Virus record (IMG/VR): IMGVR_UViG_3300022752_000048
Location: 15,377 to 79,376 of that record
Direction: 5' to 3' (one strand)
Length of the DNA stretch: 64,000 nucleotides
Origin: a virus
This document shows, in pieces, positions 3,990-63,596 of this stretch. A model generated the notes under the pieces. It did no database searches, had not been told where the DNA came from, and worked only from the letters and a program-made list of their open reading frames with translations. The first letter of the stretch is position 1. Each line of letters begins with the position of its first letter. The position numbers and the translations under genes were made by a program.

Positions 3990-6413
3990 TCAGTCCGTAT
4001 AATAAGCGCCGGAAATATGAACATTCAGAGCGGCGTTCGTAACCGGCACTGTTCCTGCCGTCCCACCGCCCGTTGGCATTGTATGACCGTATAAATAATT
4101 TGATGGATTAATTAGCCAGCCGGAACAGTAATGCCCCGCAGTCCATGTTAAATTATTACCATAGGCCATTGTAAATGCTGAATATGTTGCATTCCATGCA
4201 TTGCCGGCATTTCCCGTTGCCCTTGGATATGGGAGATTACCAATTCGCAATTCTCCGGCTGCTCCTGACATTGTGCCGTTAAGATTAATAAATAAATAGA
4301 CAAGTTTTCCAATTTTAATATAATATCCACCGGTTTGCGTTGCGTTTGGGGTCCAAGTTCCGGCTGTTGATGAACCATAAAAAGTTGGAGAAAAGCTACC
4401 TTCTTTATAATCGTCTAAATTGTTTGGATCAGAACTAGCAATCATTGTTGCTGGGAATTGAATTCCAGCATTTAGTGTTAATAAACTAGATTGAATTTGT
4501 AAGGGTAGTGATGCGCCAACAGCTGGTCCATTTAATGCAAATTGTGCAATTGCACTACTAAATCCAGTCACAGATGGTAATGTTACTTGAACCAATCCGC
4601 CAGTTGTTACTGAAATATTAAATCCAGTTGGTGGCGTATCACCAGATGTTTGATAGCTAATCAGATAATCTGTGGCATCGCCTTTCTTAGTTACCTGCGC
4701 TTTAAAAGTAAAGCGATATGGCGTTGTTGCATTTATATAAATGAATCCAGTTAATTCAACAGCGTTATACGCGGACGCGTTTTGAATTGTAGTTGTTGCA
4801 GCGTTTGTTAACGAAATCTGCGTATAAACATTAGATCCACCAACCGAGCTACCGCGCATATTATAGAAATCTAATACAGTAGTTGTTCTGGCAATACCAA
4901 TTGGTTTAGAAATTTGTCCAACAATAGATGGTGCGGTTGCAGTTATTTTTCCGGCAGTTGTTGTAGAAAGAAAATAGACTGTTCCTGCAACTAAAGATCC
5001 ACCGCCTTCAAGTGTATTTGCACCAATTGAAGTAGTTTCGCCGCCTAAACAAATTTGAAAGGTATTTGTATCAATAATATTGTATATAAGCCCAGCTACT
5101 TCGGCTGTGGCTTCCACGTCTGCTCTGGCATATGTATATGTTGATCCATTTAGATATAAAGGTCTGCCAATATCTGCGGCAACAAATCCGTGTGAGTTTT
5201 GAGTTACTAAAACAATAGTGTTTCCAGCAGCGGCCCAACTTAATGTGCCAGAACCATTGGTAATCAGTGCTTGGCCATTCGTTCCATCTGCAGCAGGCAA
5301 AGTCCATGTAACATCAGCCGTAATATTGTCTGCAGCTCTTAATCCAACTGAGTTAGTACCGTTTGCAGCAAGCTCTCTAAACCTAACAACTCCAGTATTG
5401 CCTGTGGCGGTTCCTGTTGGGCCAAGAACTAAAGATGTTTGTACAACACCTGGAAACCTATAAAGATGATTGGATGTTCCAAGAACAAATTGATTATCTG
5501 CGGTTGCAGTAGCTGACACAACAGTACTGTCCATGCCAATTGCAACAACGCCTGTTAATGTAGCACCAAAAGCAGTACCGGTGGCGTTAATAAATGTATT
5601 ATTATTTCCTGAATTATATTGCCCCGCGGCAGAGCCAACAGCAACATTTCGGCTGCCAGCAGAGTTGAGTTGTAATGCATTAGAACCAATTGCTGTATTA
5701 TCTTGTAAAAAAATGCTTGAGGCTGATGCATTTGCACCAATTGCTACGTTATTGCTTCCGATCGTATGTTGATACGATGCATTATAACCGATGAAAGTAT
5801 TATTTACACCACTAGTAATTGCTGCACCGGCAGCAATACCAATACCCGTATTATACTGGCCTGTCATTGATAGATTATAGCTATCAACCTCAAAAGTTGA
5901 TCCGGTTGTTGGATGGTCTAATCCACCACCAACTTTCTTTTCGGAACCTGCAGAATCTTTTGTATAAAGTTTTCCATCTGATTTTGCATAAAGCCTCAGT
6001 GTACTTGACGCCGGAGATGATGGAGAAGTTATATACGGATAATCAGTATAACTATTAGTTATAAGTGCTAGTATTCCAGGTGCATTAACAATCCAAGATC
6101 CCGCTGATGCATTCCATGTAAATTCAATCCATATTTCATTTGCATCTAGAATGAGCGGTTCGTTTGTTGCTAAATTATTAATTTTTTGTCCAGATGCCGG
6201 ATTAACAGTTACATTGTTCGTTAAAAACGTGCCCTTAGCATCTGAAATACGGATTGTTGTTCCGTCAATACCGATTGGAAGGTTTACAGTGATTGTGTTT
6301 AATGTTGTATCAAGAATATAGTGATAACGGCTTTGTGCAGAAATAGGTCCAGAAGATGCGTAAACAGACGCTAATCCTGGGACTTGTACTGTTTTATTAG
6401 ACCATAAAGCCAT
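3990..6413 (-). CDS. Long tail fibre protein B
   Basis: 807 aa, G/T/S/N-rich. Has NTAIG/NVAIG head repeats, LPAADGTNGQALITNGSGTLSW, and the C-terminal module NNLDDYKEGSFSP...YIKIGKLVY...NLPY. Confidence 0.85.
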   Translation of the reverse strand: MALWSNKTVQVPGLASVYASSGPISAQSRYHYILDTTLNTITVNLPIGIDGTTIRISDAKGTFLTNNVTVNPASGQKINNLATNEPLILDANEIWIEFTWNASAGSWIVNAPGILALITNSYTDYPYITSPSSPASSTLRLYAKSDGKLYTKDSAGSEKKVGGGLDHPTTGSTFEVDSYNLSMTGQYNTGIGIAAGAAITSGVNNTFIGYNASYQHTIGSNNVAIGANASASSIFLQDNTAIGSNALQLNSAGSRNVAVGSAAGQYNSGNNNTFINATGTAFGATLTGVVAIGMDSTVVSATATADNQFVLGTSNHLYRFPGVVQTSLVLGPTGTATGNTGVVRFRELAANGTNSVGLRAADNITADVTWTLPAADGTNGQALITNGSGTLSWAAAGNTIVLVTQNSHGFVAADIGRPLYLNGSTYTYARADVEATAEVAGLIYNIIDTNTFQICLGGETTSIGANTLEGGGSLVAGTVYFLSTTTAGKITATAPSIVGQISKPIGIARTTTVLDFYNMRGSSVGGSNVYTQISLTNAATTTIQNASAYNAVELTGFIYINATTPYRFTFKAQVTKKGDATDYLISYQTSGDTPPTGFNISVTTGGLVQVTLPSVTGFSSAIAQFALNGPAVGASLPLQIQSSLLTLNAGIQFPATMIASSDPNNLDDYKEGSFSPTFYGSSTAGTWTPNATQTGGYYIKIGKLVYLFINLNGTMSGAAGELRIGNLPYPRATGNAGNAWNATYSAFTMAYGNNLTWTAGHYCSGWLINPSNYLYGHTMPTGGGTAGTVPVTNAALNVHISGAYYTD

Positions 6414-28524: not shown

Positions 28525-30075
28525 TCAAATCACAAAGGCTAATGGTATCAACTGACTAGATCCAGCTATTGTAACAAGAACAGTCATGCCGATTTTGTTA
28601 TCCGCCGATATTTGTATATCCTTTAGTGTAACAGATGTAAAACGTAAATCTCGTTTTAAAGTTTGCTCTATTACAGATGCTATTTTCGTAGAAGTTGTCG
28701 ATCCTTGCAAGGCAAAACCAATGTTATTTGCCAGACCATATTGCTGATGTAGAGGTAATTGTCCATGCTCTGTTTTTAGGGCAGAAATAATTGTTTGCCT
28801 TAAATTATTTATTCCAAATTGATACTTTAAATCACCGTCTGTACCAAGCAGCAGATCGCCAGATATATCATCTACAGCAATGTCTACTCCGAAAGAAAGC
28901 AAGGCTTTATCGAGCCTTTTGAGTTCACCTTCAGAGGGCTCCGGAATGTTTGTGTTCGCTGCCGTAAGCGATAGAGGAATTTTTACTAGAGAAAAGTCGG
29001 AAAGAGTTTCTGGCGCATAAACTCTTATATATGCGACGTGACTAGTTAAAAGTTTTGAAAGATCTTGTTTTCCACTAAGATGTACTGTGGCAGAGCCATC
29101 GCGGTTGTCATTTACTCGCTCTACTTTTCTAACTTCTTCGGGTACTAAACGACTACCAATTTTGATAGAAGAGTTGATTCGGAATTTGTCTTGTTGAGAA
29201 ATTGGAACCCTTACAGTCGAAGCGCTGCCGCTTTCTAACAAAAGAATTTTTTCACCATAAAGATCAACATAAGGTGCTTTCAAATTATTGACAGTGACTA
29301 GTTCGTACCATCTATCTGAACTGCCAAGATAATCTTGGGCCATTTGCTGCAAACTTTTTTCAAACGGAACTACTCGATAACTGCGATAAATATCTAAAAC
29401 CCTAACTTCTGAGCCACCTTCGATCAATTTTGAATTAGCAAACGATAAAAGGTTCGGGGCGATATTTTTTTTGTATTTGAACTGTAAAATTATTCCTTCG
29501 ATATATTTTTCTAACTCTATAGTATTATTCAAAAAAACTAAGTCAGAAATAAAATAATCTCGTTGTTTTGGAGAGCTTTTTCGCCCTCTAAGACTATCAT
29601 AATATGGATCGCCGAGTCCAATAAAGTCAAAAGCAATTTCTCTTTGGCTCTTCAAAAACCGAAGCATAGCTTTGAAATTTTCAACGTCAAACTGGGCAAC
29701 TCGTTGTTTTTCTTCTTTTATATATTGAGTTTCGGGATCAGTCAGGTCCAGTGAATTAGCTTCAATTAGCTCAAGAAGCTCTGACATTTCTGCAAAAATA
29801 TTCAAATCTGTAAACGGGTTTACGTCGGCTCCATTTTGGTAACTTTCAACGTAGTCATGAAACTCGAGAATCTTTCTAGTTAAAAATTCGTCCCCGTTTG
29901 CGTACTTTTCAAAACTCTGAGCAATAGCACTCGCGTTCTTAACAAACCAGGGCCATCTATCTGCTGTGAGTTTGGGGAGAAGATTTAATGTTATCTTTCC
30001 CCCATCCCTCTCCCGTAGATAAAGTGACAAGTCTATTTGTATAGAGAATCTGTCTGTGTATTGTTTTTGCGCCAT
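28525..30075 (-). CDS. Baseplate protein with LysM-like and gp25/GPW-like domains
   Basis: LQQMAQDYLGSSDRWYELVTVNNLKAPY (LysM/gp53-like); C-terminal GINNLRQTIISALKTEHGQLPLHQQYG...LKRDLRF (gp25-like). Confidence 0.75.
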   Translation of the reverse strand: MAQKQYTDRFSIQIDLSLYLRERDGGKITLNLLPKLTADRWPWFVKNASAIAQSFEKYANGDEFLTRKILEFHDYVESYQNGADVNPFTDLNIFAEMSELLELIEANSLDLTDPETQYIKEEKQRVAQFDVENFKAMLRFLKSQREIAFDFIGLGDPYYDSLRGRKSSPKQRDYFISDLVFLNNTIELEKYIEGIILQFKYKKNIAPNLLSFANSKLIEGGSEVRVLDIYRSYRVVPFEKSLQQMAQDYLGSSDRWYELVTVNNLKAPYVDLYGEKILLLESGSASTVRVPISQQDKFRINSSIKIGSRLVPEEVRKVERVNDNRDGSATVHLSGKQDLSKLLTSHVAYIRVYAPETLSDFSLVKIPLSLTAANTNIPEPSEGELKRLDKALLSFGVDIAVDDISGDLLLGTDGDLKYQFGINNLRQTIISALKTEHGQLPLHQQYGLANNIGFALQGSTTSTKIASVIEQTLKRDLRFTSVTLKDIQISADNKIGMTVLVTIAGSSQLIPLAFVI

Positions 30076-30722: not shown

Positions 30723-33671
30723 ATGTCGCACTTTAAATTGTTTGATTTTGTTGACCAACATCCCGAAGAAAAACGTCCATGGAATAACCATTGGAAGAAC
30801 AAAAAAATCTGTACAAATATGCACTGCCATTCACACTTCTCATTAGATGGTGGTTCAACCGTTCAGACTATGGTTGAACGAGCTGTGGAATTGGAATACA
30901 CACACTTTACTCTTTCCGAGCACGGCAACGTAAACAGCGCCGTTGCTTTGTATCGAGAGGCTGAAAAGATTAATAAGAAAGAAAAGAAAATTAAGTTGTT
31001 TCATTCTGTCGAAGCTTATATTCGTCACCCTAAAGATGAAAAATCTACCCATATTACTATCGGATTTAAAACACAGGCCGCGTTTCAAAAATATTGTGAG
31101 CTCACCCACACACTTTACGATGAAAAACACATGGAAGTCAAATGGGGTGATGTTAAACCGGTAATGACTACCGAACACTTAGAAGAACTGGCAGCTCATG
31201 GAATTGTCATAGGGACTGGCTGTATTGGTTCATTCTTTAACTATCCTATCTATAAGCACGGTAACGTTAAAGAATCACGCGACCGCCTTGAATGGGTTAT
31301 GGGTCTAGTTGGCAAAGACAACATTTACGATGAATGGATTGTCGATGACCTTAGTAAATACTATGCGCCTGCAAAAGTTGAAGAAGGTAAAATTATTAAA
31401 GAGGCGGCGTTGGAACTTAACGAATGCTCACCACATTTATTGCAATACGGACAAAACACTCCAAACATTGGTAAAGCTGTAAATAATGTTCGCCGCCAGT
31501 ACGTTACTGGCCCACTAAACGTTAAACCTATTGTTTCGCTCGACTCCCATTATGCCCGTAAGAAAGATAAAGTAATTCAAGATTCTAAGAATTATGGTTC
31601 AGACTGGATTATGTCGAATTTTCAACATATGCGCGGTGCAGAAGAATATGCATATGAGGCTAAAAAATACGGTGATCTAGACGATAAATTTATTGAAGAG
31701 CTAATCGATAACACCGAAGACTATGCCGAACAGTTTAATAGTTATGAGTTTGGTCCATCAAAAGAATGGATCATGCCTAATTATGAAGACTCCAACCTAA
31801 AATGGATTGTCGACAAGATTAAATCTGAAAAACGAATTAACTTGGAAAGTAAAGATTACGCTGAGCGCCTCAATTATGAAATTAAAGTGCTTGGCAATAA
31901 TGGCGTATTTGACGGTCTAGCATATCTAAGAACGGTTAGCGAAATTTGCGACGAGGCGGAAAAACGCAATATTTTGGTTAATACACGTGGTTCAGCTGGT
32001 GGTAGCCTTTCGTATTTTGCTGTGGGTGCATCCGTTACTGATCCAATTAAATATGATCTTCAGTTTGAACGTCATATTACTCTTGGCCGTATTAAGTCTG
32101 GATCTTTGCCAGACTGTGATTTGGACTTTGACGTAAAAGACGAAGCCCTAAAAATGATCTACGAAATGTATCCTGACCGAGTTTTGCCCATTTCAGTAAA
32201 CCAAAACCTTAAACCTCGCTCGGCAATTAAAGATGCAGAACGTTTTATTCTCGGATCTGTACGGCAGGAAACGGAAATCCTAACTAAGTCAATGCCAATT
32301 GTTCCACAAGGTAAAGACGAGACTGAATGGTTGTTTGGTTACGAAGATCATGAAACTGGTGAGCACGTCCAAGGCTATTTTGAGACTTCCCCAGAGCTTC
32401 GCACCTATGCAGAAAAGAATCCAGAAATTTGGATGATGGTAGAACAAATGTGTGGTGTTATGCGGCAAAAATCTTCACACCCGTGCGGGCTTATTATTAC
32501 ACCGTCCGATAGCAAGAAATGGCTGCCAGTTTGTCGCGTAGGTGGAAAGAATGGCGCACTTGTTACAGCGTGGTGCCCAAAAGATTTGGAATGGTATCGT
32601 GCAGTAAAGTTTGACGTGCTTGGTGTTAAAAAGATGCAAACAATCAAGAAAACATTCGAGCTGATTAAACAACGCCATGGAATTGATTTAAAATGGGGTG
32701 AGTTTGATCATAATGATCAAGTGTTTGAGAATATTTATCACGCAGGTAAAACCGATGCCACGTTCCAAACAAATACTTCCGGTATTCGTTCGTTGTGTGT
32801 AAGAACTAAACCAAAAAACATTGTTGATATTTCCAACCTAATTGCTTTGTATCGTCCATCTACAATTGACTGGCAGATGCATTTGCAGGCATCTGAAGAG
32901 CGACCAAGCGGATTTCACGGCAACGCTATGGAATTTTATGTGCAATGCTCTGCCGGCAATCAGAAACCGTATTATATTCATCCCTCGCTCGAACCTATTT
33001 TTGGTTCGACGTTCGGAGTACCATTGTTTCAAGAACAGATCCTAAAGCTTGCTCGAGAAGTCGGCGGCTATTCATTTGAAGAAGCAGAAAACCTTCGTCG
33101 CGGTATTGGTAAAAAAGATAAAAAGCTTATTAACGAAATTCTAGATGATATGGAAAAACGAATTATTGCCAAAGACTCTTCCTGGACCAAAAGCCAATTG
33201 CACGAATTGCGGGAAATGGTTATTGCATCTGCACGTTATGGATTCAATTGTGCCCATAGTACATCTTATGGAATTGTTTCTTACGCTACGGCATGGCTTA
33301 AAAATAATTATCCGTTGGAATTCTGGACGGCAGAGTTGAGCGTTGAATATGGCGATGAAGACAAACTCCGGGAATATTCACAATTAATTTCTGATAAACT
33401 ACTTCAGCCATCCGTCCTGCATTCCGACACTACAGACTTTGTCATTGAAGGAGGCAAGATTCGCGTCCCCTTATGTGTTTTAAAGGGAGTTGGAGAAGAA
33501 GCTGCAAAAGCGGTCAAAAAACTCATGCATAATAGTTTAGAGGAGATCGGTTTAACCAAAAAGCCACAAGTGGTCAAAAACCCGAAAGAATCCACTAAAC
33601 GTGCAAAAGTACTTAGTGACCAAAAACCGGATGATAATTTGCTGTCGCTCAGGCAAGGGCAGGAAACCTAA
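30723..33671 (+). CDS. dnaE: DNA polymerase III alpha-like (DnaE), N-terminal fragment: PHP + polymerase + first HhH
   Basis: PHP HCHSHFSLDG/SEHGN/LDSHY; RGSAGGS; PDCDLDF; KFDVLG; ALYRP; YGFNCAHSTSY. Homology stops after LKGVGEEAAKAV, and there is no OB fold. Confidence 0.95.
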   Translation: MSHFKLFDFVDQHPEEKRPWNNHWKNKKICTNMHCHSHFSLDGGSTVQTMVERAVELEYTHFTLSEHGNVNSAVALYREAEKINKKEKKIKLFHSVEAYIRHPKDEKSTHITIGFKTQAAFQKYCELTHTLYDEKHMEVKWGDVKPVMTTEHLEELAAHGIVIGTGCIGSFFNYPIYKHGNVKESRDRLEWVMGLVGKDNIYDEWIVDDLSKYYAPAKVEEGKIIKEAALELNECSPHLLQYGQNTPNIGKAVNNVRRQYVTGPLNVKPIVSLDSHYARKKDKVIQDSKNYGSDWIMSNFQHMRGAEEYAYEAKKYGDLDDKFIEELIDNTEDYAEQFNSYEFGPSKEWIMPNYEDSNLKWIVDKIKSEKRINLESKDYAERLNYEIKVLGNNGVFDGLAYLRTVSEICDEAEKRNILVNTRGSAGGSLSYFAVGASVTDPIKYDLQFERHITLGRIKSGSLPDCDLDFDVKDEALKMIYEMYPDRVLPISVNQNLKPRSAIKDAERFILGSVRQETEILTKSMPIVPQGKDETEWLFGYEDHETGEHVQGYFETSPELRTYAEKNPEIWMMVEQMCGVMRQKSSHPCGLIITPSDSKKWLPVCRVGGKNGALVTAWCPKDLEWYRAVKFDVLGVKKMQTIKKTFELIKQRHGIDLKWGEFDHNDQVFENIYHAGKTDATFQTNTSGIRSLCVRTKPKNIVDISNLIALYRPSTIDWQMHLQASEERPSGFHGNAMEFYVQCSAGNQKPYYIHPSLEPIFGSTFGVPLFQEQILKLAREVGGYSFEEAENLRRGIGKKDKKLINEILDDMEKRIIAKDSSWTKSQLHELREMVIASARYGFNCAHSTSYGIVSYATAWLKNNYPLEFWTAELSVEYGDEDKLREYSQLISDKLLQPSVLHSDTTDFVIEGGKIRVPLCVLKGVGEEAAKAVKKLMHNSLEEIGLTKKPQVVKNPKESTKRAKVLSDQKPDDNLLSLRQGQET

Positions 33672-33763
33672 AACCTACTTTTTATGGTGGCGTGCGAATT
33701 TCCCAAGCTGGAAAACAATCATTAAATATAAAATGCCAACAAGAATAAATAAAAAAACAATAT

Positions 33764-33796
33764 ATCATGGCGGTTTAGGACTGCCGCGATTTTTTT
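33764..33796 (+). terminator. Probable rho-independent terminator after dnaE-N
   Basis: Imperfect stem ATCATGGCGGT-TTAGG-ACTGCCGCGAT followed by a T-run. Confidence 0.55.
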
Positions 33797-33942
33797 GGGT
33801 TATGTTAACTGACACTAAAGGGCAAACAATAACTTATGACGAGGTAAAAAAAGAATCTATTTTTGAAACAAGTTCAAAGATAGATCTTCTAGAATTTTTA
33901 GCAGATAATAAATTCCCATCACAAATATTAGATGTTTTTATG

Positions 33943-34497
33943 TCAAAACTCTAATTTAAAGCCGAATCCTAAGCTTTTATCTTTAAATTCATATCCAGTT
34001 TCTAGCCAAAGCGGGCCGTATAATCGAAACCCAAGATTTAATTCAATGTTTAATTCTTCGGTTGGTTTTGTCGTTAACAATTTATCAATAGATTTTTCAG
34101 CCATTAATCCGGCAGAATATTTAGATAAATTTTGTTTTTGAACTATTTCTGTTTCTTTCTTTACGCTTTCTTTTTCTTTTGTTTCTTTAGAATTCTTGGA
34201 ATCTTTGTCTACAACTTCCGAATTGCTTTCCTCGGTTTTGCTTTCTTCTTTAGTAGTTTCAATAACTTCGCCATTTGGTTTAGTTATTTTTTTAGTAATT
34301 TTTTTCTCTGTTTTTTTAGATTGATATTCTTTTTCAAGGCGTTCGCGCTCTTCTGCAATTACTTTTTCTGTTTTTTCTTTATCTACAACAAGAACTTCTT
34401 TGATTTGAATATCTGGTGCTGGGCGATTACCATAGCCAATGGCATAACCGCCTACTAAACATAATGCTGCCGCAATTATATATTTTTTATCAAGCAT
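33943..34497 (-). CDS. Spanin-position membrane protein (N-terminal TM, charged linker, C-terminal OM beta strands)
   Basis: Overlaps the endolysin stop. Hydrophobic N-terminus YIIAAALCLVGGYAIGYG, K/E-rich middle, amphipathic strands ending LGFGFKLEF. Confidence 0.6.
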   Translation of the reverse strand: MLDKKYIIAAALCLVGGYAIGYGNRPAPDIQIKEVLVVDKEKTEKVIAEERERLEKEYQSKKTEKKITKKITKPNGEVIETTKEESKTEESNSEVVDKDSKNSKETKEKESVKKETEIVQKQNLSKYSAGLMAEKSIDKLLTTKPTEELNIELNLGFRLYGPLWLETGYEFKDKSLGFGFKLEF

Positions 34498-34936
34498 AAG
34501 GATTTTTCTTTTGCAGATCTTTCCAAGTTAAATCTTGGGGATTGTATTCAAAATGAGCCGTCTCTTTAAATTTTTTCCAATTACCAGCCCATCGTAAACC
34601 CTTTGGCTCTAGTATTGGTTTGATTAAAGTCCAAATTTTTTTGTAAAGTTTTTCATCCCAAACAATATCGCCCTTTTTATCTACAAAATGGAAATCGCCG
34701 GCTAGTCTATAATTGTGAGTTGATTGTCCGCCTTTGGCGTTTGTAACAATCTTTCCGGCTTCGGAACGGCCAAGCGCGTAGAGTTTATCTTGATCTTCGG
34801 GAGATCTATAGCCAGAATGGCATTGCATATTTAGCCCATTGGCATATGCAATTTCTAACATTCGATTCATTACTTCTTGCGCGGGTGGGATTAACTCAGC
34901 TACTAGCTTTTTTGTTCTTTGATCCATTTCCAGCAT
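34490..34936 (-). CDS. Endolysin, M15 family L-Ala-D-Glu peptidase
   Basis: SGYRS..Q..LY..GR...VTNAKGGQSTHNYRLAGDF and ETAHFE Zn-peptidase motifs. Confidence 0.9.
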   Translation of the reverse strand: MLEMDQRTKKLVAELIPPAQEVMNRMLEIAYANGLNMQCHSGYRSPEDQDKLYALGRSEAGKIVTNAKGGQSTHNYRLAGDFHFVDKKGDIVWDEKLYKKIWTLIKPILEPKGLRWAGNWKKFKETAHFEYNPQDLTWKDLQKKNPYA

Positions 34937-35138
34937 TTTCAGATTCCTCTTTCTTTTGCATGCGAGGTTCTTTATATGCCTTTTCTACACCATTCACAGC
35001 AGCTAGCGCAATGGCTACTGATGCAATAGAATTTGCAACGTCTACATTATGGGTATAGCCCAAAATGGCTAGTAATGTGATTGTATAAAAAGCAATTGCC
35101 GTACGTCTGCAGCCATTGAATGGTTTTAGCAACATCAT
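34896..35138 (-). CDS. Putative holin
   Basis: 80 aa with two hydrophobic segments and a charged C-tail, directly upstream of and overlapping the endolysin. Confidence 0.6.
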   Translation of the reverse strand: MMLLKPFNGCRRTAIAFYTITLLAILGYTHNVDVANSIASVAIALAAVNGVEKAYKEPRMQKKEESENAGNGSKNKKASS

Positions 35139-36841
35139 TTATACTTCTTTTTTAATAAAGAATGCGCCTTTTTAAGGATCTCTACGCTTCCAAACCCTTG
35201 TTTTTTTACTGGTTTGTCATTTACAGATTGTTGTTCGCCCATTCTTTTAGAATAATCACCAACAATATCAGATTCTGGGATTTCTCCCGCCACAGCACCC
35301 TCTTTCGGCTTGCTTGGAAATGCTGGATTTTTAGCCTGCTCGGCAGATTTGTACATAGACTTGGCAGCTTCTCCGTTGCCAGACCCTTGTTTTTGTTTCA
35401 TCTTTCTTTCAATTTCTGCTTTTGGCATAGCTATAAACCCTTCATTTGCCGAAGGGATTTCTTCCGGTTTTTGAGTTTCTGTCTTTTGCTTTTGAGCAGC
35501 TTCCTGTCTGGCCTTTAGTTCTGCGATTCTAGCAGCATATTCTGCAGCGCCGCCACCAGCGACCATTGAGCTGCCGCCTTTTTTGGGCTTTGTTTTTGCT
35601 CTGAATTCACCAGAACCCGGCGAATAATTTTCTTGTGAAACAATTCCTTGCGCCTCTTTGGTAGCGCCTTCTGTTGCGTCACCAATATCGCGTTCTGTCG
35701 CTCCTTGTGGTCTTAAACCTGAACCGCCTTTGGCTCCTTGTCGAGCTAAAAACCAATCCATGTGCTCGGCCTGAGCCTGTGCACTTGGGCCGTATTTAGA
35801 ACTACGACCCGGCACGCCTCTTGATCCAGGGCCAGTAAGTTGTGTTAAAGAACCGCGTGAATCTGGGGAATAGTTTCTTGAATATAAATTTTGATCTGCG
35901 CTTCCCTGGTATTGGCGTTTTGTTTCAAAACCAGGAACTCGCCTAGTTTCTTCTTGTTCCATAAATTCTTTTGGCATTTCTTCAGAAGCAGGTTTTTGTT
36001 CAGCACGAAATTGCTCTGCAGCCATAGAAACTTTTGGATCATAAAGAGCGCTCTTTGTATCAGGATCTTCGAAATCGGGATCATAATTGGGAGACTGAGG
36101 ATCACCAAGACCAAGAGCAGCCGCGCCAAATTTTTGTTTTGCGCTCAAGATTTGCTCATTAAGCTCTTTCATTCTTTTTAATCTTTGAGGTGCAAGTTTT
36201 GGATCTTGAGCGTTTTTAATTTCTTCTTCGGTTTTTGGCTTTGCAAGTGACCTGAGTTCTTCTTGCAAGGGAGCAATATCTTGCTCAAATTGTCGACGTA
36301 CTTCGGTGTCACGGCCAACTTTCCTTGGTACTGAGACTGTTTCAGTTTTTGGAACTTGAACATCAACAGGTTTGCCTGTGTATTCTTGTTCGGCATGTTT
36401 ATTGTGATATTTCAAAGCAGTTTTGTAGTGCGCTTGAGCTGCTTTTGCATCTCCACTTCGCTCTGCATCTTCGCCCATATCTTGAGCTAATTTAGCTACT
36501 TCTCTGTACCTTTTTTGACGTTTTAGGTCTTTCATTGCATCTGTAAGTGCAGCATCGTCGTTTTCTTCGTCAGCCTTCATCATTGCCGTTTGAGAAGAAG
36601 TTTGTACCATTCCGGGGCTCATCTCCCCTGCTGGACGCGACCCACCCATTGGCATTGCCTGTTTTTGCAGTTCCGTAGCTTTTTCCATTCTGAGTTTGTT
36701 AAATACATCAGAGCGATCTTCTGGAGCAACCTTTGGCATTACTTCATTGACTTTAGCGGGGCCTTTAATTTCTTTCACTGCTTGGTCAACGGACATAGCT
36801 TTGCACATTTTATGCATTTTTTTAAGATGCTGGATGCTCAT
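35135..36841 (-). CDS. Large low-complexity charged protein, probable head/internal virion protein
   Basis: 568 aa, K/E/Q/G-rich, with several (L/M)xK(S/A) motifs; GGAG RBS; late-type promoter upstream. Confidence 0.55.
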   Translation of the reverse strand: MSIQHLKKMHKMCKAMSVDQAVKEIKGPAKVNEVMPKVAPEDRSDVFNKLRMEKATELQKQAMPMGGSRPAGEMSPGMVQTSSQTAMMKADEENDDAALTDAMKDLKRQKRYREVAKLAQDMGEDAERSGDAKAAQAHYKTALKYHNKHAEQEYTGKPVDVQVPKTETVSVPRKVGRDTEVRRQFEQDIAPLQEELRSLAKPKTEEEIKNAQDPKLAPQRLKRMKELNEQILSAKQKFGAAALGLGDPQSPNYDPDFEDPDTKSALYDPKVSMAAEQFRAEQKPASEEMPKEFMEQEETRRVPGFETKRQYQGSADQNLYSRNYSPDSRGSLTQLTGPGSRGVPGRSSKYGPSAQAQAEHMDWFLARQGAKGGSGLRPQGATERDIGDATEGATKEAQGIVSQENYSPGSGEFRAKTKPKKGGSSMVAGGGAAEYAARIAELKARQEAAQKQKTETQKPEEIPSANEGFIAMPKAEIERKMKQKQGSGNGEAAKSMYKSAEQAKNPAFPSKPKEGAVAGEIPESDIVGDYSKRMGEQQSVNDKPVKKQGFGSVEILKKAHSLLKKKYK

Positions 36842-36859: not shown

Positions 36860-36924
36860 TTGACTTTTATTGAAATTAATGCCATTGTCTTATATTAGCA
36901 AATCGCTAATATAAATTATACACT
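36860..36924. promoter_or_regulatory. Overlapping face-to-face promoters with 10-bp inverted repeat
   Basis: Plus strand TTGACT-17-CATTGT (36860..36888); minus strand AGTGTATAATTT (36913..36924); perfect inverted repeat TTATATTAGC-AAATC-GCTAATATAA (36890..36914). Confidence 0.55.
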
Positions 36925-36935
36925 TGGAGTCGTCT

Positions 36936-37859
36936 ATGGCAATTGATTTAAGTAAGATGACATTTGGCGCTGAGTTAGAACTGGGTGATGTTGATACAAA
37001 AATTGTTTTACCGCCCGGAAATAGATGGTGCGATAAAGACGGATCTATCTGTAATTCCAACGGAACTGCAAACGATCCCAAAAAAATCTTCAATCGATAT
37101 GGCGGCGAAATCCAAATGAAACCGGAAAACACACCGGAAGAATTGCTTCGTGCTACGAAGGAGATTTACGACCTTCTCCCTAAAAAACATTTTAACTTTA
37201 CAACTAATTTACACGTTCATATTCGTATCCCCGGCCTTAAAGACGATTTAGAGGCCCTAAAGAAAATTGTCACGTATCTTCGAAAATATGATGAAGAAAT
37301 CTATGAACTTATAGATCCAAACCCATTTCCAGAGCGTCAGCTAAAGTTTTCAAATCCAGATTTTTATAATGGTGCAGTCTCAAGATGGCGTCGAAGGAAT
37401 AAATCCCATAGATACCGGGTTACAGAAAAAGTTTATAAACTTATGATGAATGCCAAATCTCCACGCGAATTTTACGAGGCACACGCCCCCAAGAATCGTT
37501 TTGGACAACCTATGTGGCATGTTGTTGTTAGGGCTGGTGTTAACCTAAAACAAATATTCGAAGATACGGAAACTATTGAGTTTCGGCATTTCACGATGTC
37601 GCCAGATTTAAACAAAATGCTTTCCGCCTATAAATGGCCAAAGCTTTTGATGGAAGCTATTTTTGTTACTGGTCATACACCAAAACAAATTTTAGAAAAC
37701 AATCCAGATCTGGTATTTCAAAACTTTCATCCGTATGACCACGGGCTAGACAAAATTTTTAGGCAGACTAATGTTTATCATAACAAACGTTCAGAAGTAC
37801 GAGAGAATTACAAGCGTTTAATCGAACAAGGTTTGATAAACGAACAGTCCTTATATTGA
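36936..37859 (+). CDS. Amidoligase (COOH-NH2 ligase, Amidoligase_2-like)
   Basis: TFGAELE, W.DKDGSI, GGEI, LHVHI and TETIEFRHF motifs. Start moved to ATG 36936, which follows a GGAG RBS. Confidence 0.8.
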   Translation: MAIDLSKMTFGAELELGDVDTKIVLPPGNRWCDKDGSICNSNGTANDPKKIFNRYGGEIQMKPENTPEELLRATKEIYDLLPKKHFNFTTNLHVHIRIPGLKDDLEALKKIVTYLRKYDEEIYELIDPNPFPERQLKFSNPDFYNGAVSRWRRRNKSHRYRVTEKVYKLMMNAKSPREFYEAHAPKNRFGQPMWHVVVRAGVNLKQIFEDTETIEFRHFTMSPDLNKMLSAYKWPKLLMEAIFVTGHTPKQILENNPDLVFQNFHPYDHGLDKIFRQTNVYHNKRSEVRENYKRLIEQGLINEQSLY

Positions 37860-52051: not shown

Positions 52052-52719
52052 TAATAATGGTCACTGACGATATTTACAATAAAAGTATCTATCCACAGTG
52101 TGATTTTAGCATTGTTGAGCTGCCCCTAGAAGCTAAAGACGCTAAAAAAATGTACCAGCAGCTCTATAAAACTCAAAAAAATAATCATATTTCTTTACAA
52201 TATAGTCGTTTACCAAAAAAACTTCGGCTAAAAGCCATGAGCAACGTCTATCTAGGAGATGAGATTGGTTTTAAGTTTTATGATTATGTAACAGTCGTTT
52301 CACAACAACCCTGCCGACAGCCTCCAAATCATCTGTCTCCTCTAGGGGAAGTTGGTATTTTGTTTACAAAAAACGAAGAACCCAATATTAAAACCACTCA
52401 TTGGTTCAATCCAGAAATTGGAGATTGTACTAACGTTTGGGATGTCGGATTTCAACCAAAAGAAGGAAATGGGCAAACAATATCTAAAAAATTTGCATGG
52501 GAGATAGGATATCTTTTGGCAAATTTAGCAAGTCCACTCATCTGCAGAAAGTTCTTAGTGTTGGGGCTGCCTGAGTTGTCAATGGCAAAATTTGCATTAC
52601 ATTCAAACTTACAAATGTATGCAATAACTTCAGATGAATTTACTGCCAACAAAATTATTAAAGATTACGACAAAACGTACAAAAACGAGGTAGAAGATAA
52701 GTCATGGCAAAAGAAATAA
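52021..52719 (+). CDS. Degenerate beta-class N4C/N6A DNA methyltransferase-like protein
   Basis: Scaffold motifs occur in beta-class order (CDFSIVELP, GFKFYD, EVGILFTK, TNVWDV, KKFAWEI..L, AITSD), but DPPY/SPPY and FxGxG are missing. Confidence 0.55.
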   Translation: MQITSSDGRIVIMVTDDIYNKSIYPQCDFSIVELPLEAKDAKKMYQQLYKTQKNNHISLQYSRLPKKLRLKAMSNVYLGDEIGFKFYDYVTVVSQQPCRQPPNHLSPLGEVGILFTKNEEPNIKTTHWFNPEIGDCTNVWDVGFQPKEGNGQTISKKFAWEIGYLLANLASPLICRKFLVLGLPELSMAKFALHSNLQMYAITSDEFTANKIIKDYDKTYKNEVEDKSWQKK

Positions 52720-54314
52720 AGTACGGCGTTGAAGCTCGAGAAAAAGCTGTAAAAGCGTTGGAAGAAATTTCTCATATTGTTGGTAGTACTCTTGGGCCGG
52801 GCGGTAAAACTGTTCTTTTGAGTCGTCGTAATTCTGCCGACGAAATTTCTGTTTCTCACACCAAAGACGGATTTAACGTTCTTAACAGCCTTCGCTATAC
52901 CGACCCCGTATTTGATGCTGTGCATAAACTTTGCTTACAAGCCAGTGCAAACTCAGTTGTTTCATCGGGTGACGGAACTACCTCAACTATTGTTATGGCA
53001 GCAGCCTTTGCTAAGGCTTTAGTCAAAAATGGAAACAACCCGCAAGCTGCGGCTCGCAGGTTTCGTAAAGAAATTCAAAACGCTATCGAGGCGATTAAAC
53101 AAGAATCGGTGGCTAGCGATGAGGCTGTATATAAAGTGGCGTTAACAAGTGCTAACGGCGATGAAGAACTCACCAAGTTTGTTATGGATGCAGTTTCCCA
53201 AAGCTCTGCTTATGGAACTGTCATCGTAGAAAAAAATCCTATGTCTAAAGATCCGTACAAAGTCGACAAGGAATATGGATATCAAGCCGGCACAGGGTAC
53301 AGCTATTATCTGCCATTTGCGCAAAGCATTCGTCCAAATTTGGCAAATAATGCTGAATTCACAATCAAGCAATCCCATGTTTTGCCTTATAACGGCGACC
53401 TAATGATGATGTCGCAGGTAAAACCGATGCTCGAATGCATGGCAAAAAACACTATCGGGGGCTGGAGTCTGCTGATTGTGTGCCATCAAATTGCTGAAGA
53501 TTTAGCTGCAAATTTGGCGTTTTTTAATCGTCAAAATCCTAACGCAAAAGTGTTTGTAGTAAGGACTACTCCCTCTGCAGAACTAAATGGGCAGGTTCAG
53601 CAGCTTAATGATATTGCATCTTATACCGGTGCAAAAGTTATGGACGGTGGAAGCCTTACTCACCTTACTATGGAAGACTTTGGCGACTGTAAATCAGTAA
53701 GAATTGGGCCTCACAAAACTTTCATTTTAGGTAAATCCGAACGTAATTGGATTATCGAGCGAGCGGAGCAAAACGAAGAATCGGCTCGTTTGGCGCCAAG
53801 TCAGATGGACCGCGATATCATCAACTCCCGTAATGCATCTTTGACTGGCGGTTGCGTGAAGCTAATTATTGGTGGTTCATTGATGAGTGATTTACAAGAA
53901 CGCGCTGACCGTGCTGATGACGCTATTAAAGCTTCGCAAGCTTGTTCACGCTCAGGAGCTCTGCCGGGCTGCGGTGCATCGTACATGCGAGCGGGGCAGC
54001 AAGCTAAGGTTTCTGAATCCGTACAGACAGCGCTTGCAAGCATTCATAATGTGATTATGACAAATTTTGGTGAAACGCCCATGAAGCATTTTGATAAAAA
54101 TGAAACGTATTATATTACAGATAATGATATTAAAAGAGTAGAAAATTTTTTAGAACACGGAGTTGCCGATAGTTTTGAAACTATTCGGGCGGTTATCACA
54201 AACGCATTTGAACTAGGTTTATTGGTGACAAACTTAGGCGGTTATAGCCTTGAAGCTGATTTAGATCAGATGGAGCAGGCGGCTAGGGCTAAAGAAATTC
54301 TAAGAGGCGTATAG
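52704..54314 (+). CDS. groEL: Phage chaperonin (GroEL-like)
   Basis: MAKEIKYG.EAR, STLGPGG, TKDG, GDGTTS, ER.DRADDAIKA and GALPGCG. Confidence 0.92.
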   Translation: MAKEIKYGVEAREKAVKALEEISHIVGSTLGPGGKTVLLSRRNSADEISVSHTKDGFNVLNSLRYTDPVFDAVHKLCLQASANSVVSSGDGTTSTIVMAAAFAKALVKNGNNPQAAARRFRKEIQNAIEAIKQESVASDEAVYKVALTSANGDEELTKFVMDAVSQSSAYGTVIVEKNPMSKDPYKVDKEYGYQAGTGYSYYLPFAQSIRPNLANNAEFTIKQSHVLPYNGDLMMMSQVKPMLECMAKNTIGGWSLLIVCHQIAEDLAANLAFFNRQNPNAKVFVVRTTPSAELNGQVQQLNDIASYTGAKVMDGGSLTHLTMEDFGDCKSVRIGPHKTFILGKSERNWIIERAEQNEESARLAPSQMDRDIINSRNASLTGGCVKLIIGGSLMSDLQERADRADDAIKASQACSRSGALPGCGASYMRAGQQAKVSESVQTALASIHNVIMTNFGETPMKHFDKNETYYITDNDIKRVENFLEHGVADSFETIRAVITNAFELGLLVTNLGGYSLEADLDQMEQAARAKEILRGV

Positions 54315-60916: not shown

Positions 60917-61897
60917 ATGCAAGCTTTGCCAAAAATTTTGCAGAAACGCACCAATTTTAGACCATTCGTGTATCCAACTGCATTTGATATTTTTGAAAAA
61001 CAGCAGAAAGCTCATTGGACTCCTTCCGAAGTTGAGATGGACGCAGATGTTCATCAATATCACACAGAATTTTCTGAAAAAGAAAAACATGCAATCACAA
61101 CAATTCTAAAAATTTTCACGCAAACAGAAAACATTGTTGCCGATTATTGGACAAACGTAGTGGCAAAATGGTTTGTACAACCAGAAATTTGTATGATGGC
61201 AAACACGTTTGCTTCATTCGAAGCAATTCACGCACAAGCATATGACAAACTCAACACTGCTCTTGGATTAGATACAAAAGAATTTTATTTGTCATTTCTT
61301 GATGACGAAAATTTAAAACACAAAACTGAATTTATTGAATCCAAAATGAAGATCAACGATGTAAGCAGCCTGCCGTTATCCCTTGCCGTTTTTTCTGGAT
61401 TTACAGAAGGTGTTTCGTTGTTTAGCTCGTTTGCAATTCTATTAAATTTTCAACGTTTTAATAAACTAAAAGACGTGGCAAATATTATTAGCTGGTCTAT
61501 TCGTGATGAAAGTTTACATTCGTCTGCAGGATGCTGGTTGTTTAGAACGCTTATTGCTGAAATGGATTATTCTAAAGAGCAAATAGCTGTTCTTGAAGAA
61601 CAAGTCAAAACAGCTGCAGAGCATATCCATGATATGGAAATGATTTATATCGATAAAATCTTCTTGGAAGATGATCTTGAAGGACTGAAGAAAGACGATA
61701 TGAAAAATTTTATCAAGCACCGAATTAATCAAAAAATGCGTGATCTAGGATTTAGTGATATTTATGCTAACCTTCCAACAGATAAAGTCGGTTCGTGGTT
61801 TAATCCTCTAAACCAAGCCGTAGAATTTGTGGACTTCTTTGAAGCACGATCTACAAATTATGTCAAAGGTTGGAATTTCGGCAACATTGGCTGGTAA
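60917..61897 (+). CDS. nrdB: Ribonucleotide reductase class I beta subunit
   Basis: HWTPSEV, EAIHAQAY, EGVSLFSSF, RDESLH and DFFEARSTNY. Confidence 0.97.
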   Translation: MQALPKILQKRTNFRPFVYPTAFDIFEKQQKAHWTPSEVEMDADVHQYHTEFSEKEKHAITTILKIFTQTENIVADYWTNVVAKWFVQPEICMMANTFASFEAIHAQAYDKLNTALGLDTKEFYLSFLDDENLKHKTEFIESKMKINDVSSLPLSLAVFSGFTEGVSLFSSFAILLNFQRFNKLKDVANIISWSIRDESLHSSAGCWLFRTLIAEMDYSKEQIAVLEEQVKTAAEHIHDMEMIYIDKIFLEDDLEGLKKDDMKNFIKHRINQKMRDLGFSDIYANLPTDKVGSWFNPLNQAVEFVDFFEARSTNYVKGWNFGNIGW

Positions 61898-61928
61898 GAA
61901 TTTAATCTTCTACAAGAGAATAAAATCT

Positions 61929-63596
61929 ATGAAATTAAAAGAACTGAAGTCTTCTTTCGAAGCACCCCAATGGCTCACTGAAGAAGGATTTATTACCCTC
62001 TCAAAGGGATATTTACTCCCTGGAGAAACCCCCAAGGGTATGTACAGGCGTGTTGCTAAGGCTGCTGCTTCGTATTTGCCAAATGATCAAAAGAAATGGG
62101 AAGAAGATTTCTTTAATATTATTTGGAGCAACTGGCTTTGCCTTGCCACTCCAATTGCTTCAAACTTTGGTGCTGATCGTGGTCTACCTATTAGCTGTTT
62201 TGGTAGTTATGTTGACGACAGTATCTATTCTATCTTTGATAAGAACCTTGAAGTTGCAGTTCTTAGCAAGCACGGCGGTGGTACTTCGAGTTTCCTTGGT
62301 GATGTGCGCGGACGTGGCTCTCTGATTAATGGTGGTGGCTCTAGCAACGGTACTACTAGTTGGGTCGAAGTATTGCGTACAACCGTTAACCAGGTATCAC
62401 AAAACGGTATTCGCCGTGGCCAACACGCTACATATATTCCAATCGATCACGGTGATTTTGATGAATTTGTTGATGTAAGAAAACATTTAGATGGTATCCA
62501 TCTTGGCGTAACTGTTAGTGATGCTTTCTTACAAAAATGTGAAAACGGAGACCAAGAAGCACTGCGCCGTTGGTTCAAATTGCTCAAAGCAAGAATGGAA
62601 ACCGGCGAACCATACATTCTTTTTATCGACAGAGTCAACAAACAAAATCCGCCAATGTACAAAGCAAATGATTTAAGCGTTAAGGCTAGTAATCTTTGTT
62701 CGGAAATTGTTTTGCATTCCGACGCTGATCATTCTTTTGTTTGCTGTTTGTCGTCTATGAACTTGGCAAAATGGGATGAATGGAAAGACACAAACGCTGT
62801 ATTTGTTGCGACCGTGTTTCTTGATTGCGTAATGGAAGAATTTATTCGCAAGGCATTTAAAATTCGCGGAATTGAAGCCGCTGTGCGTTTTGCGCAAAAG
62901 TCAAGAGCACTTGGACTAGGTGTATTGGGATACCATACGTATTTACAACATAATATGATTCCGTTTGATAGCCTTCAGGCAAGAATCTTCAATCATACTT
63001 GGGCCAAATACATCAAAAACGAAGCACAAAAGGCAACCGAGTGGATGGCGATGGAGCTTGGCGAACCCGAGTGGTGCAAAGGATTCGGTGTTCGCAACAC
63101 GCACTTGCTTGCAGTTGCTCCTACCACATCTAATGCGATTATTTCAGGCGGCGTTTCGCAGGGAATAGAACCGATTGTAGCTAACGCTTATGTGCAAAAA
63201 ACAGCTAAAGGTACTTTCATTAGGAAAAACCCTACTCTCGAGCAATATCTAGATAAACTAGGTTTAAATACTGACGATATTTGGGAAAAAATTATCGATA
63301 ATAACGGTAGTGTTTCGGATATCATTGGTATTAGCGAAGAAGCCAAAGAAGTATTTAAAACTGCTTATGAAATTAACCAAAAAGAAATTATTTTTCAGGC
63401 TAACCAACGACAGAAATACATTTGCCAAGCACAATCGCTAAATTTGTTTTTTGACGCAAATGAAAGTCCTGAGTGGATTCACAAAATTCACAAAGAAGCT
63501 GCTATGATGCCAAACATTAAGTCTTTGTATTATGTAAGATCGATGGCCGGTATCAAAGCTGAAAAAGCTGAGGGTTGTAAAAGCTGCGAAGGTTAG
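61929..63596 (+). CDS. nrdA: Ribonucleotide reductase class I alpha subunit (no ATP cone)
   Basis: LATP, PISCF, GGGTS, GEPYILF.D, SNLCSEI, APTTS, QAQSLN, KSLYY and C-terminal CKSCEG. Start taken at ATG 61929. Confidence 0.97.
   Translation: MKLKELKSSFEAPQWLTEEGFITLSKGYLLPGETPKGMYRRVAKAAASYLPNDQKKWEEDFFNIIWSNWLCLATPIASNFGADRGLPISCFGSYVDDSIYSIFDKNLEVAVLSKHGGGTSSFLGDVRGRGSLINGGGSSNGTTSWVEVLRTTVNQVSQNGIRRGQHATYIPIDHGDFDEFVDVRKHLDGIHLGVTVSDAFLQKCENGDQEALRRWFKLLKARMETGEPYILFIDRVNKQNPPMYKANDLSVKASNLCSEIVLHSDADHSFVCCLSSMNLAKWDEWKDTNAVFVATVFLDCVMEEFIRKAFKIRGIEAAVRFAQKSRALGLGVLGYHTYLQHNMIPFDSLQARIFNHTWAKYIKNEAQKATEWMAMELGEPEWCKGFGVRNTHLLAVAPTTSNAIISGGVSQGIEPIVANAYVQKTAKGTFIRKNPTLEQYLDKLGLNTDDIWEKIIDNNGSVSDIIGISEEAKEVFKTAYEINQKEIIFQANQRQKYICQAQSLNLFFDANESPEWIHKIHKEAAMMPNIKSLYYVRSMAGIKAEKAEGCKSCEG

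Follow-up and report, generated by a model that had tools for sequence, protein, structure and literature searches.

To our knowledge, all described spanins reach the outer membrane via a lipoprotein. Surveys define both the outer-membrane spanins (o-spanins) and the unimolecular spanins (u-spanins) by a lipobox, and current spanin finders require one (PMC6139136; PMC12596118). In the survey by Kongari et al. 2018, 91 of 677 phage genomes yielded no spanin, and the authors explicitly allowed that "an OMP could act as an o-spanin" (PMC6139136); in the literature we found no paper describing an outer-membrane protein (OMP) in that role. The subject of this analysis is X, a 184-residue protein in the spanin slot of a viral contig, encoded on the minus strand at positions 33943–34497 (stop codon 33943–33945) of a 64,000-nt stretch of that contig (IMG/VR record IMGVR_UViG_3300022752_000048, positions 15,377 to 79,376), hereafter called the window. 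X combines an N-terminal hydrophobic helix, a charged linker and a C-terminal domain of four predicted amphipathic strands ending in a β-signal for the β-barrel assembly machinery (BAM). Because the defining lipobox is absent, X stands outside every described spanin family. We read it, with a confidence that falls a little short of even, as a single-chain, lipoprotein-free spanin analogue, the component of the lysis cassette that disrupts the outer membrane.

The unimolecular spanin T1 gp11 (PMC6139136) resembles X in being a single polypeptide encoded after the endolysin in the lysis cassette with no partner gene, in its proposed hold on both membranes, and in being β-rich rather than coiled-coil. 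The two differ in polarity, since gp11 has an N-terminal lipoprotein signal leading to the outer membrane and a C-terminal helix in the inner membrane, whereas X would run in the opposite direction, with no conserved lipobox Cys, no C-terminal transmembrane helix, and four strands with a β-signal where gp11 relies on lipid. With the lambda pair Rz/Rz1 (PF03245, PF06085), X shares the slot directly after the endolysin, a predicted N-terminal hydrophobic helix of N-in/C-out orientation, and a charged, partly helical periplasmic region. Unlike that pair, it lacks a periplasmic Cys and is not accompanied by an o-spanin gene, whether embedded, overlapping or adjacent; the presumptive outer-membrane module is part of X itself. 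Neither PF03245 (Rz, Phage_lysis) nor phrog_312, the largest Rz-like PHROG, matches X or anything else in G000, G001 and G002, of which G001 is a relative rated 100% complete at 169,059 bp.

Two further systems are similar in layout. In TonB and TolA, as proposed for X, an N-terminal anchor holds the inner membrane, a long charged linker crosses the periplasm and a small C-terminal domain containing β structure acts at the outer membrane, but they have no sequence match with X, their C-terminal domains are soluble and lack a terminal β-signal, and they are host energy transducers rather than genes of a lysis cassette. The anchors of trimeric autotransporters (YadA, 2lme) likewise consist of four amphipathic C-terminal strands with an aromatic β-signal end, and form a barrel only by oligomerising. 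An earlier note on this DNA, made from the sequence alone, had drawn on that likeness, and no support for a kinship emerged: none of 64 members of the X family matches Pfam YadA_anchor at E ≤ 0.01, Foldseek reaches 2lme at E 2.9 with a TM score of 0.2–0.3, the anchor is absent from the top VIA-align rows, and no pore-filling helix precedes the strands of X, residues 86–124 being predicted as disordered or strand. The remainder of X would moreover stay periplasmic and not be exported.

The X gene, its family and its N-terminal modules

The start of the X gene overlaps the stop of the endolysin gene by 8 nt (ATGCTTGA), and the endolysin gene is itself overlapped by 41 nt by the gene of a holin-like protein. 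The same trio with the same overlaps is found in two other IMG/VR contigs (104,757 and 169,059 bp), whose X proteins are 81% and 61% identical to that of the window. The open reading frame (ORF) is thus confirmed as the third gene of an overlapping holin–endolysin–X cassette, as the earlier note had it, and the gene order is kept in both relatives. That note had also looked to synteny of homologues with endolysins, and here the answer is divided. The association holds in the close lineage, in which X is 61–81% identical, and was not seen in L031, a locus that shares only the N-terminal module. As L031 is the sole distant context that was read and no M15, lysozyme or amidase endolysin was found on its half-complete contig, the endolysin link is demonstrated for the close lineage only.

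A word-based search returned eleven proteins, each of exactly 184 residues and 55–100% identical, all of them metagenomic. When a profile of the last 67 residues was run against 1.84 billion representatives, 69 proteins were matched at E ≤ 1e-3; five are shorter pieces, two are long repeat-like matches and the others have 126–217 residues. In nearly all of these 69 representatives the match extends to the very last residue, and mean identity within the family is about 25%. X belongs to no Pfam or PHROG family, and the 64 members compared yielded no Pfam match at E ≤ 0.01 and no shared Pfam or PHROG family; a few members match Rz-like spanin PHROGs weakly (best 1.6e-5). The nearest ESM Atlas clusters are unnamed and 95–100% viral. 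DUF6808, hinted at by a minority of the neighbouring clusters, was discarded since it had no match in the window.

Further searches added little to the distribution of the family. Among 50,697 records of cultured phages, tblastn with X and with two distant members as queries gave no match. When IMG/VR was scanned with single members or sub-alignments, only the three known contigs and L031 came up; a metagenome scan returned the same contigs, and a degenerate DNA pattern search found the known relatives plus six chance matches only. Nothing was found among GTDB genomes scanned with the endolysin alignment and with the motif GPLWLE, and the X domain is missing from Myxococcus phage Mx1, Flavobacterium phage fF4 and Elizabethkingia phage TCUEAP1. 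The L031 protein has 209 residues (4968–5597, plus strand) and is encoded on an IMG/VR contig of 85 kb with a completeness rating of 51%. It aligns with the family profile at an hhalign probability of 97% over the N-terminal helix, linker and hairpin only; its C-terminal β-rich domain also ends in Phe, yet has no detectable kinship to that of X. Since only the N-terminal part is shared, this module combines with different C-terminal β domains, which suggests that it is paired with different domains of outer-membrane type.

Residues 6–23 of X (34429–34482, minus strand) form the N-terminal hydrophobic helix, which follows the basic sequence MLDKK and ends in GGYAIGYG, a GxxxG accompanied by aromatics. 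AlphaFold predicts a helix over residues 4–23, with a predicted local distance difference test (pLDDT) score of 88. Across the family the N-terminus is basic, often LLxKxWK; next comes a run of uncharged residues (median 18), after which a Lys or Arg usually stands. This run ends in GxxxG in 29 of 65 members, where shuffles would give 6, while [GAS]xxxG is present in 51 and an aromatic residue occurs there in 61 of the same 65. On the strength of the prediction and these family statistics, an inner-membrane signal-anchor is favoured for this helix over a signal peptide.

The linker was described in the earlier note as a K/E-rich stretch of about 100 residues. A charged linker is indeed present, and it is not featureless. 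Residues 40–85 (34243–34380, minus strand) comprise a predicted charged helix (40–61) and a conserved β-hairpin (65–85) carrying KPNGE, or KPDGT in other members; this is part of the region aligned with L031 at 97% probability. The K/E/S/T-rich segment of residues 86–124 follows (34126–34242, minus strand). In the AlphaFold model pLDDT is below 50 at residues 84–98 and climbs towards the C-terminal domain, with a predicted strand at residues 115–121. The family linker as a whole is rich in K, E, T and V and has a median of 85 residues (range 46–132), with the KPDGT hairpin conserved.

We looked for a lipoprotein partner in several ways. None of the minus-strand ORFs of at least 20 residues within X has a Cys, so the embedded o-spanin that might have been hidden in an alternate frame is not there, and none lies adjacent. 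The only Cys of X, Cys13 in the sequence AALC, is replaced by Ala in three of the eleven close homologues, and AALC is therefore not a conserved lipobox. Among 64 family members a lipobox-like pattern occurs in a scattered minority only, and the Cys is not conserved. Lipobox-bearing ORFs picked up by a lipoprotein-signal scan of the whole 79-kb contig were rejected as antisense artefacts. On both counts, a cassette with no evident lipoprotein gene and a hydrophobic helix with no canonical lipobox, the description made from the sequence alone stands. The same scan of the 169-kb relative found two credible lipoproteins, both more than 70 kb from the lysis genes; they were rejected as o-spanin candidates, being distant and metalloprotease-like (HExxH). 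Apart from X, this complete relative showed no candidate for disrupting the outer membrane. The two lipoproteins look like paralogues (G001 101287–101757, plus strand, the same as L027 1787–2257; and G001 122806–123375, plus strand, the same as L028 3406–3975). They carry the lipoboxes TASC and LIGC and the HExxH motifs HELMH and HELGH, have no firm Pfam match, and are probably secreted or lipid-anchored zinc metalloproteases.

The C-terminal four-strand domain

Residues 125–184 (33946–34125, minus strand) constitute a four-strand amphipathic β domain that ends in GFKLEF. With an alignment of 64 sequences, AlphaFold2 places strands at residues 127–134, 150–160, 163–170 and 175–182, with pLDDT of 90–97 over residues 125–184; with 11 sequences the same strands are obtained at a pLDDT of about 70. 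These strands match the four that the earlier note had picked out. The columns of the domain, for which statistics were compiled over 70 sequences, follow a strict two-residue repeat (dyad), so that one face of the strands is 87–100% hydrophobic at nearly every position (V157 at 76% and a small residue at 167 deviate). This face is formed by Y127, L129, V131 and A133 in strand 1, by Y151, V153, A155, V157 and V159 in strand 2, and in the later strands by L163, L165, Y169 and F171 and by V176, L178, I180, Y182 and F184, with aromatic residues concentrated at both strand ends and aliphatic residues mid-strand. The opposite face is polar, with near-invariant or frequent Gly at 130, 156, 168 and 179 and conserved R158, E/D166, E183 and W164. 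The loop of residues 135–148 is long and includes a short amphipathic helix, residues 161–162 (GP) make a tight turn and the loop of residues 172–175 is short. These loop lengths agree with the rule for outer-membrane proteins, and both chain ends lie on the linker side.

The β-signal recognised by BAM has the consensus polar-x-G-x-x-aromatic/hydrophobic-x-aromatic/hydrophobic (PMC10945584), and the terminus of X, GFGFKLEF, fits it. Of 81 members, 73 have Gly at −6 and hydrophobic residues at −3 and −1 right at the C-terminal end, compared with 1% of the 8-mers from ORFs of the window, and the last residue is Phe in 71 of the 81. Both the final Phe and the alternation of hydrophobic residues are thus conserved far above chance in about 80 relatives of about 25% identity, and what had been noticed in a single sequence as a BAM β-signal ending proves to be a property of the family. 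We know of no reason why a soluble domain should keep a Phe at its exact terminus across such divergence, and this conservation is the strongest single argument for an outer-membrane destination. Taken together, the β-signal core, the aromatic girdles and the polar, Gly-rich inner face suggested by the alignment are typical of outer-membrane barrels.

Barrels assembled by BAM are closed and have eight or more strands; the four of one X chain are too few to close a barrel by themselves. Positions 128 in strand 1 and 181 in strand 4 are among the top pairs by mutual information with average product correction (MI-APC). A Lys or Arg is carried at 128 by 21 sequences and at 181 by 27; no sequence has one at both positions and 6 have none at either (Fisher 1e-9). 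The charge trait requires at least 7–9 changes on a maximum-likelihood tree of the domain, which was built with trait columns 128 and 181 removed (65 columns, weakly supported). Of seven path-disjoint pairs of sequences, six show the charge moving in opposite directions and none in the same one (sign test 0.03). Registers set by side-chain parity make R158–E166 and E166–181 cross-strand neighbours and align the four glycines in one stripe, which the 128/181 register prolongs from strand 4 into strand 1. Strands 1 and 4 are the free edges of an up-down meander, and their coupling therefore points to pairing between copies. The covariation, read on the predicted strand order, is suggestive, not decisive, of subunits joined through strands 1 and 4 into a closed homo-oligomeric barrel.

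Structure comparison gave nothing more specific. A sequence profile search of the PDB found nothing credible for X. The best Foldseek match to the PDB has E 0.9, with weak rows for an EspP-BAM intermediate, a TamAB hybrid barrel, TOC75 and the YadA anchor. VIA-align against 48,161 chains gave as best match a designed soluble barrel (Z 6.1), with KdgM, OprF, OmpA, LptD, FhaC and a designed transmembrane barrel at Z 4.1–4.8, together with many unrelated sheets at the same level. All of these Foldseek and VIA-align matches are within the stated noise. The alignments cover four consecutive strands of meander barrels over 48–57 residues, in keeping with a plain up-down meander. As the fold of X is a generic curved meander, membrane and soluble barrels are indistinguishable by structure comparison.

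Proposed action of X and competing explanations

From these features we infer the membrane locations, oligomerisation and lysis function of X as follows. The N-terminal helix, oriented N-in and C-out, would remain in the inner membrane and self-associate via its small-xxx-Gly pattern, and the charged linker of about 100 residues (helix, KPNGE hairpin and disordered K/E/T stretch) would thread the peptidoglycan meshwork. BAM would recognise the C-terminal four-strand unit through its terminal β-signal, and several copies of X would form a small barrel in the outer membrane in which strand 4 of one copy pairs with strand 1 of the next. Such tethers could build up harmlessly during late expression. 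Once the holin and the M15 endolysin had removed the wall, they would be free to move and collapse, drawing both membranes together and breaking or fusing the outer membrane in the way suggested for Rz/Rz1 and T1 gp11. In a bolder variant, the tethered four-strand unit could stall on BamA, so that the host machine itself becomes the outer anchor.

Several observations weigh against this scheme. Each chain supplies four strands, too few for a self-closed barrel, and the covariation test relies on the weakly supported 65-column tree, with p of 0.03, and on the AlphaFold strand order. The fold matches are also compatible with a soluble oligomeric barrel or sandwich whose hydrophobic face is buried. 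In some members the linker has only 46–60 residues, which is short for spanning the periplasm, and many members have possible −3/−1 sites for signal peptidase, making N-terminal cleavage possible. The lysis role is argued from gene position within one phage lineage. The L031 gene follows genes for a DnaB-like helicase and a ClpP-like protease, with genes beyond that match no Pfam family, and M15, lysozyme and amidase endolysins were sought on its half-complete 85-kb contig and none was found.

Some of these points are accommodated by other explanations. The evidence of the β-signal and the strands would serve equally well if the N-terminal helix were a cleaved signal peptide, leaving X as a small oligomeric barrel in the outer membrane only, with a long periplasmic tail, that weakens or perforates this membrane at lysis and makes no bridge to the inner one. 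An n-h-c layout is possible (basic MLDKK, about ten hydrophobic residues, a GG break and AIG/YG), and most members have at least one −3/−1 site with small residues. We nevertheless consider cleavage unlikely, in view of the near invariance of GGYAIGYGN(K/R)P in the close family, which goes beyond the usual conservation of signal peptides, the roughly five-fold enrichment of GxxxG and the aromatic residues in 61 of 65 members. Moreover, position −3 relative to the conserved Gly is aromatic in many members, a poor context for signal peptidase I, and many have the extra amphipathic leader LLxKxWK ahead of the helix. If the helix does stay in the membrane, X might act as an Rz-like protein whose β domain is no barrel and docks by strand addition on a host outer-membrane component, either BamA or BamD through mimicry of the β-signal or some other host barrel, with a host partner or a jammed BAM as the outcome. 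Hydrophobicity of the outer face, with aromatic girdles on all four strands and not just the last, tells against such docking, as does the 128/181 covariation, which indicates that strands 1 and 4 pair with each other, and we have no evidence for any host partner. Docking, which we judge improbable, would suit a protein anchored by its N-terminus, with a charged region in the periplasm and no partner encoded by the phage, and a lone four-strand unit that cannot close. The weak matches of a few members to Rz-like spanin PHROGs also fit it, and β-signal peptides bind and inhibit BAM (PMC10945584).

That X works in the envelope but not in lysis, for instance in superinfection exclusion, receptor masking or envelope remodelling during infection, and merely rides at the end of the late operon, seems to us distinctly improbable. 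Relatives 61–100% identical preserve the tight overlap of 8 nt with the endolysin gene, and the complete 169-kb relative shows no alternative candidate for disrupting the outer membrane. Gene position by itself is weak evidence, and the L031 gene, related through its N-terminal module (hhalign 97%), has replication-type genes around it and no endolysin was found on its contig, both of which would fit such a role; the C-terminal domain of its protein differs, however, and the function may not be common to both. Least credible by far is a host with no outer membrane, in which the β domain would bind the wall or the cytoplasmic membrane. In its favour, Shine-Dalgarno use also fits monoderm hosts, and the relatives of the DnaE and M15 proteins include many phages of Gram-positive bacteria. 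Against this, no role in monoderms is known for a Phe β-signal at the exact terminus or for aromatic girdles, the 148-residue endolysin is a bare catalytic domain with no wall-binding module, the tail-fibre matches are to phages of diderm hosts only, and the baseplate protein matches Myxococcus phage Mx1.

If X is a spanin analogue, its design would be an undescribed, lipid-free route to breakage of the outer membrane. It is possible, though short of probable, that X and its roughly 80 relatives make up a third architectural class of spanins, defined by an inverted single chain with no lipid and a BAM-inserted homo-oligomeric barrel of four-strand protomers. Many "spanin-less" uncultured phages of diderm bacteria would then have a recognisable gene for outer-membrane disruption, and replacement of the lipid by a β-signal would explain part of the spanin gap seen in 91 of 677 genomes. 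Annotators would gain a signature consisting of the small-xxx-Gly N-terminal anchor, the KPDGT hairpin and a four-strand domain ending in G-x-x-hydrophobic-E-F, and X would offer a minimal natural system for how BAM handles barrels made of several short chains. The hypothesis can be tested cheaply in E. coli with the established platform for complementation of lambda Rz/Rz1.

The lysis operon, the contig and its host

X is the last gene of a four-gene unit on the minus strand, which is preceded by a sigma-70-like promoter, TTGCCA-16-TATAAT (36915–36942), predicted from its match to the consensus at 11 of 12 positions only. The first gene (35135–36841) encodes a K/E/Q/A-rich protein of 568 residues with no family match and no assigned function. 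Its counterparts have 180 residues in L001 and 715 residues in L002, where a neighbouring gene encodes 791 residues, and the ends are conserved. The holin-like protein (34896–35138) is a chain of 80 residues with a pair of hydrophobic helices and a charged tail at the C-terminus; as it matches no Pfam or PHROG family, the label is inferred from build and position. The 41-nt overlap of its gene with that of the endolysin is conserved in L001 and L002. The endolysin (34490–34936) is a single-domain protein of 148 residues of the M15 type (VanY / L-Ala-D-Glu peptidase), identified by Pfam PF13539 (Peptidase_M15_4, 1.6e-10) and PF02557 (VanY, 1.5e-8), by PHROG endolysin families (1.7e-24) and by tblastn matches to phage endolysins.

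An ORF convergent to X (33802–33954, plus strand) overlaps the 3′ end of the X gene by 12 nt and lies inside a longer ORF (33601–33954). It is conserved at the protein level in L001 and L002 (…FFWVMLTD.KGQ…SKIDLLE.LA..FP…SKL) and has no PHROG match; its start is probably the ATG at 33802, giving about 50 residues. A terminator-like hairpin (33768–33786) behind the DnaE gene precedes it.

The contig has 79,376 bp and 38% G+C and is rated about half complete. It comes from freshwater and lake metagenomes and recurs across several studies; no RNA dataset carrying it is listed among public runs. A search for tRNA genes as a hint to the host found none. A Shine-Dalgarno core lies upstream of 41 of 75 genes, against 7% of random windows, with G enriched at −11 to −8. 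This frequency and the sigma-70-type promoter before the lysis operon argue against a host among the Bacteroidota, which was therefore rejected. Segments of the tail fibre match phages of diderm aquatic or enteric bacteria only (Synechococcus, Serratia, Pelagibacter, Methylophilales and Roseobacter), and the baseplate protein (28525–30075) is 29% identical over 79% of its length to its counterpart in Myxococcus phage Mx1 (169.6 kb). A diderm host is likely on this sequence evidence, in which the endolysin with no wall-binding domain and the tail-fibre and baseplate relatives are taken as indirect hints. The same phage also encodes a GroEL-type chaperonin (52704–54314, plus strand; PHROG 1e-71) and the large subunit of a class I ribonucleotide reductase (61827–63596, plus strand; 3e-155).

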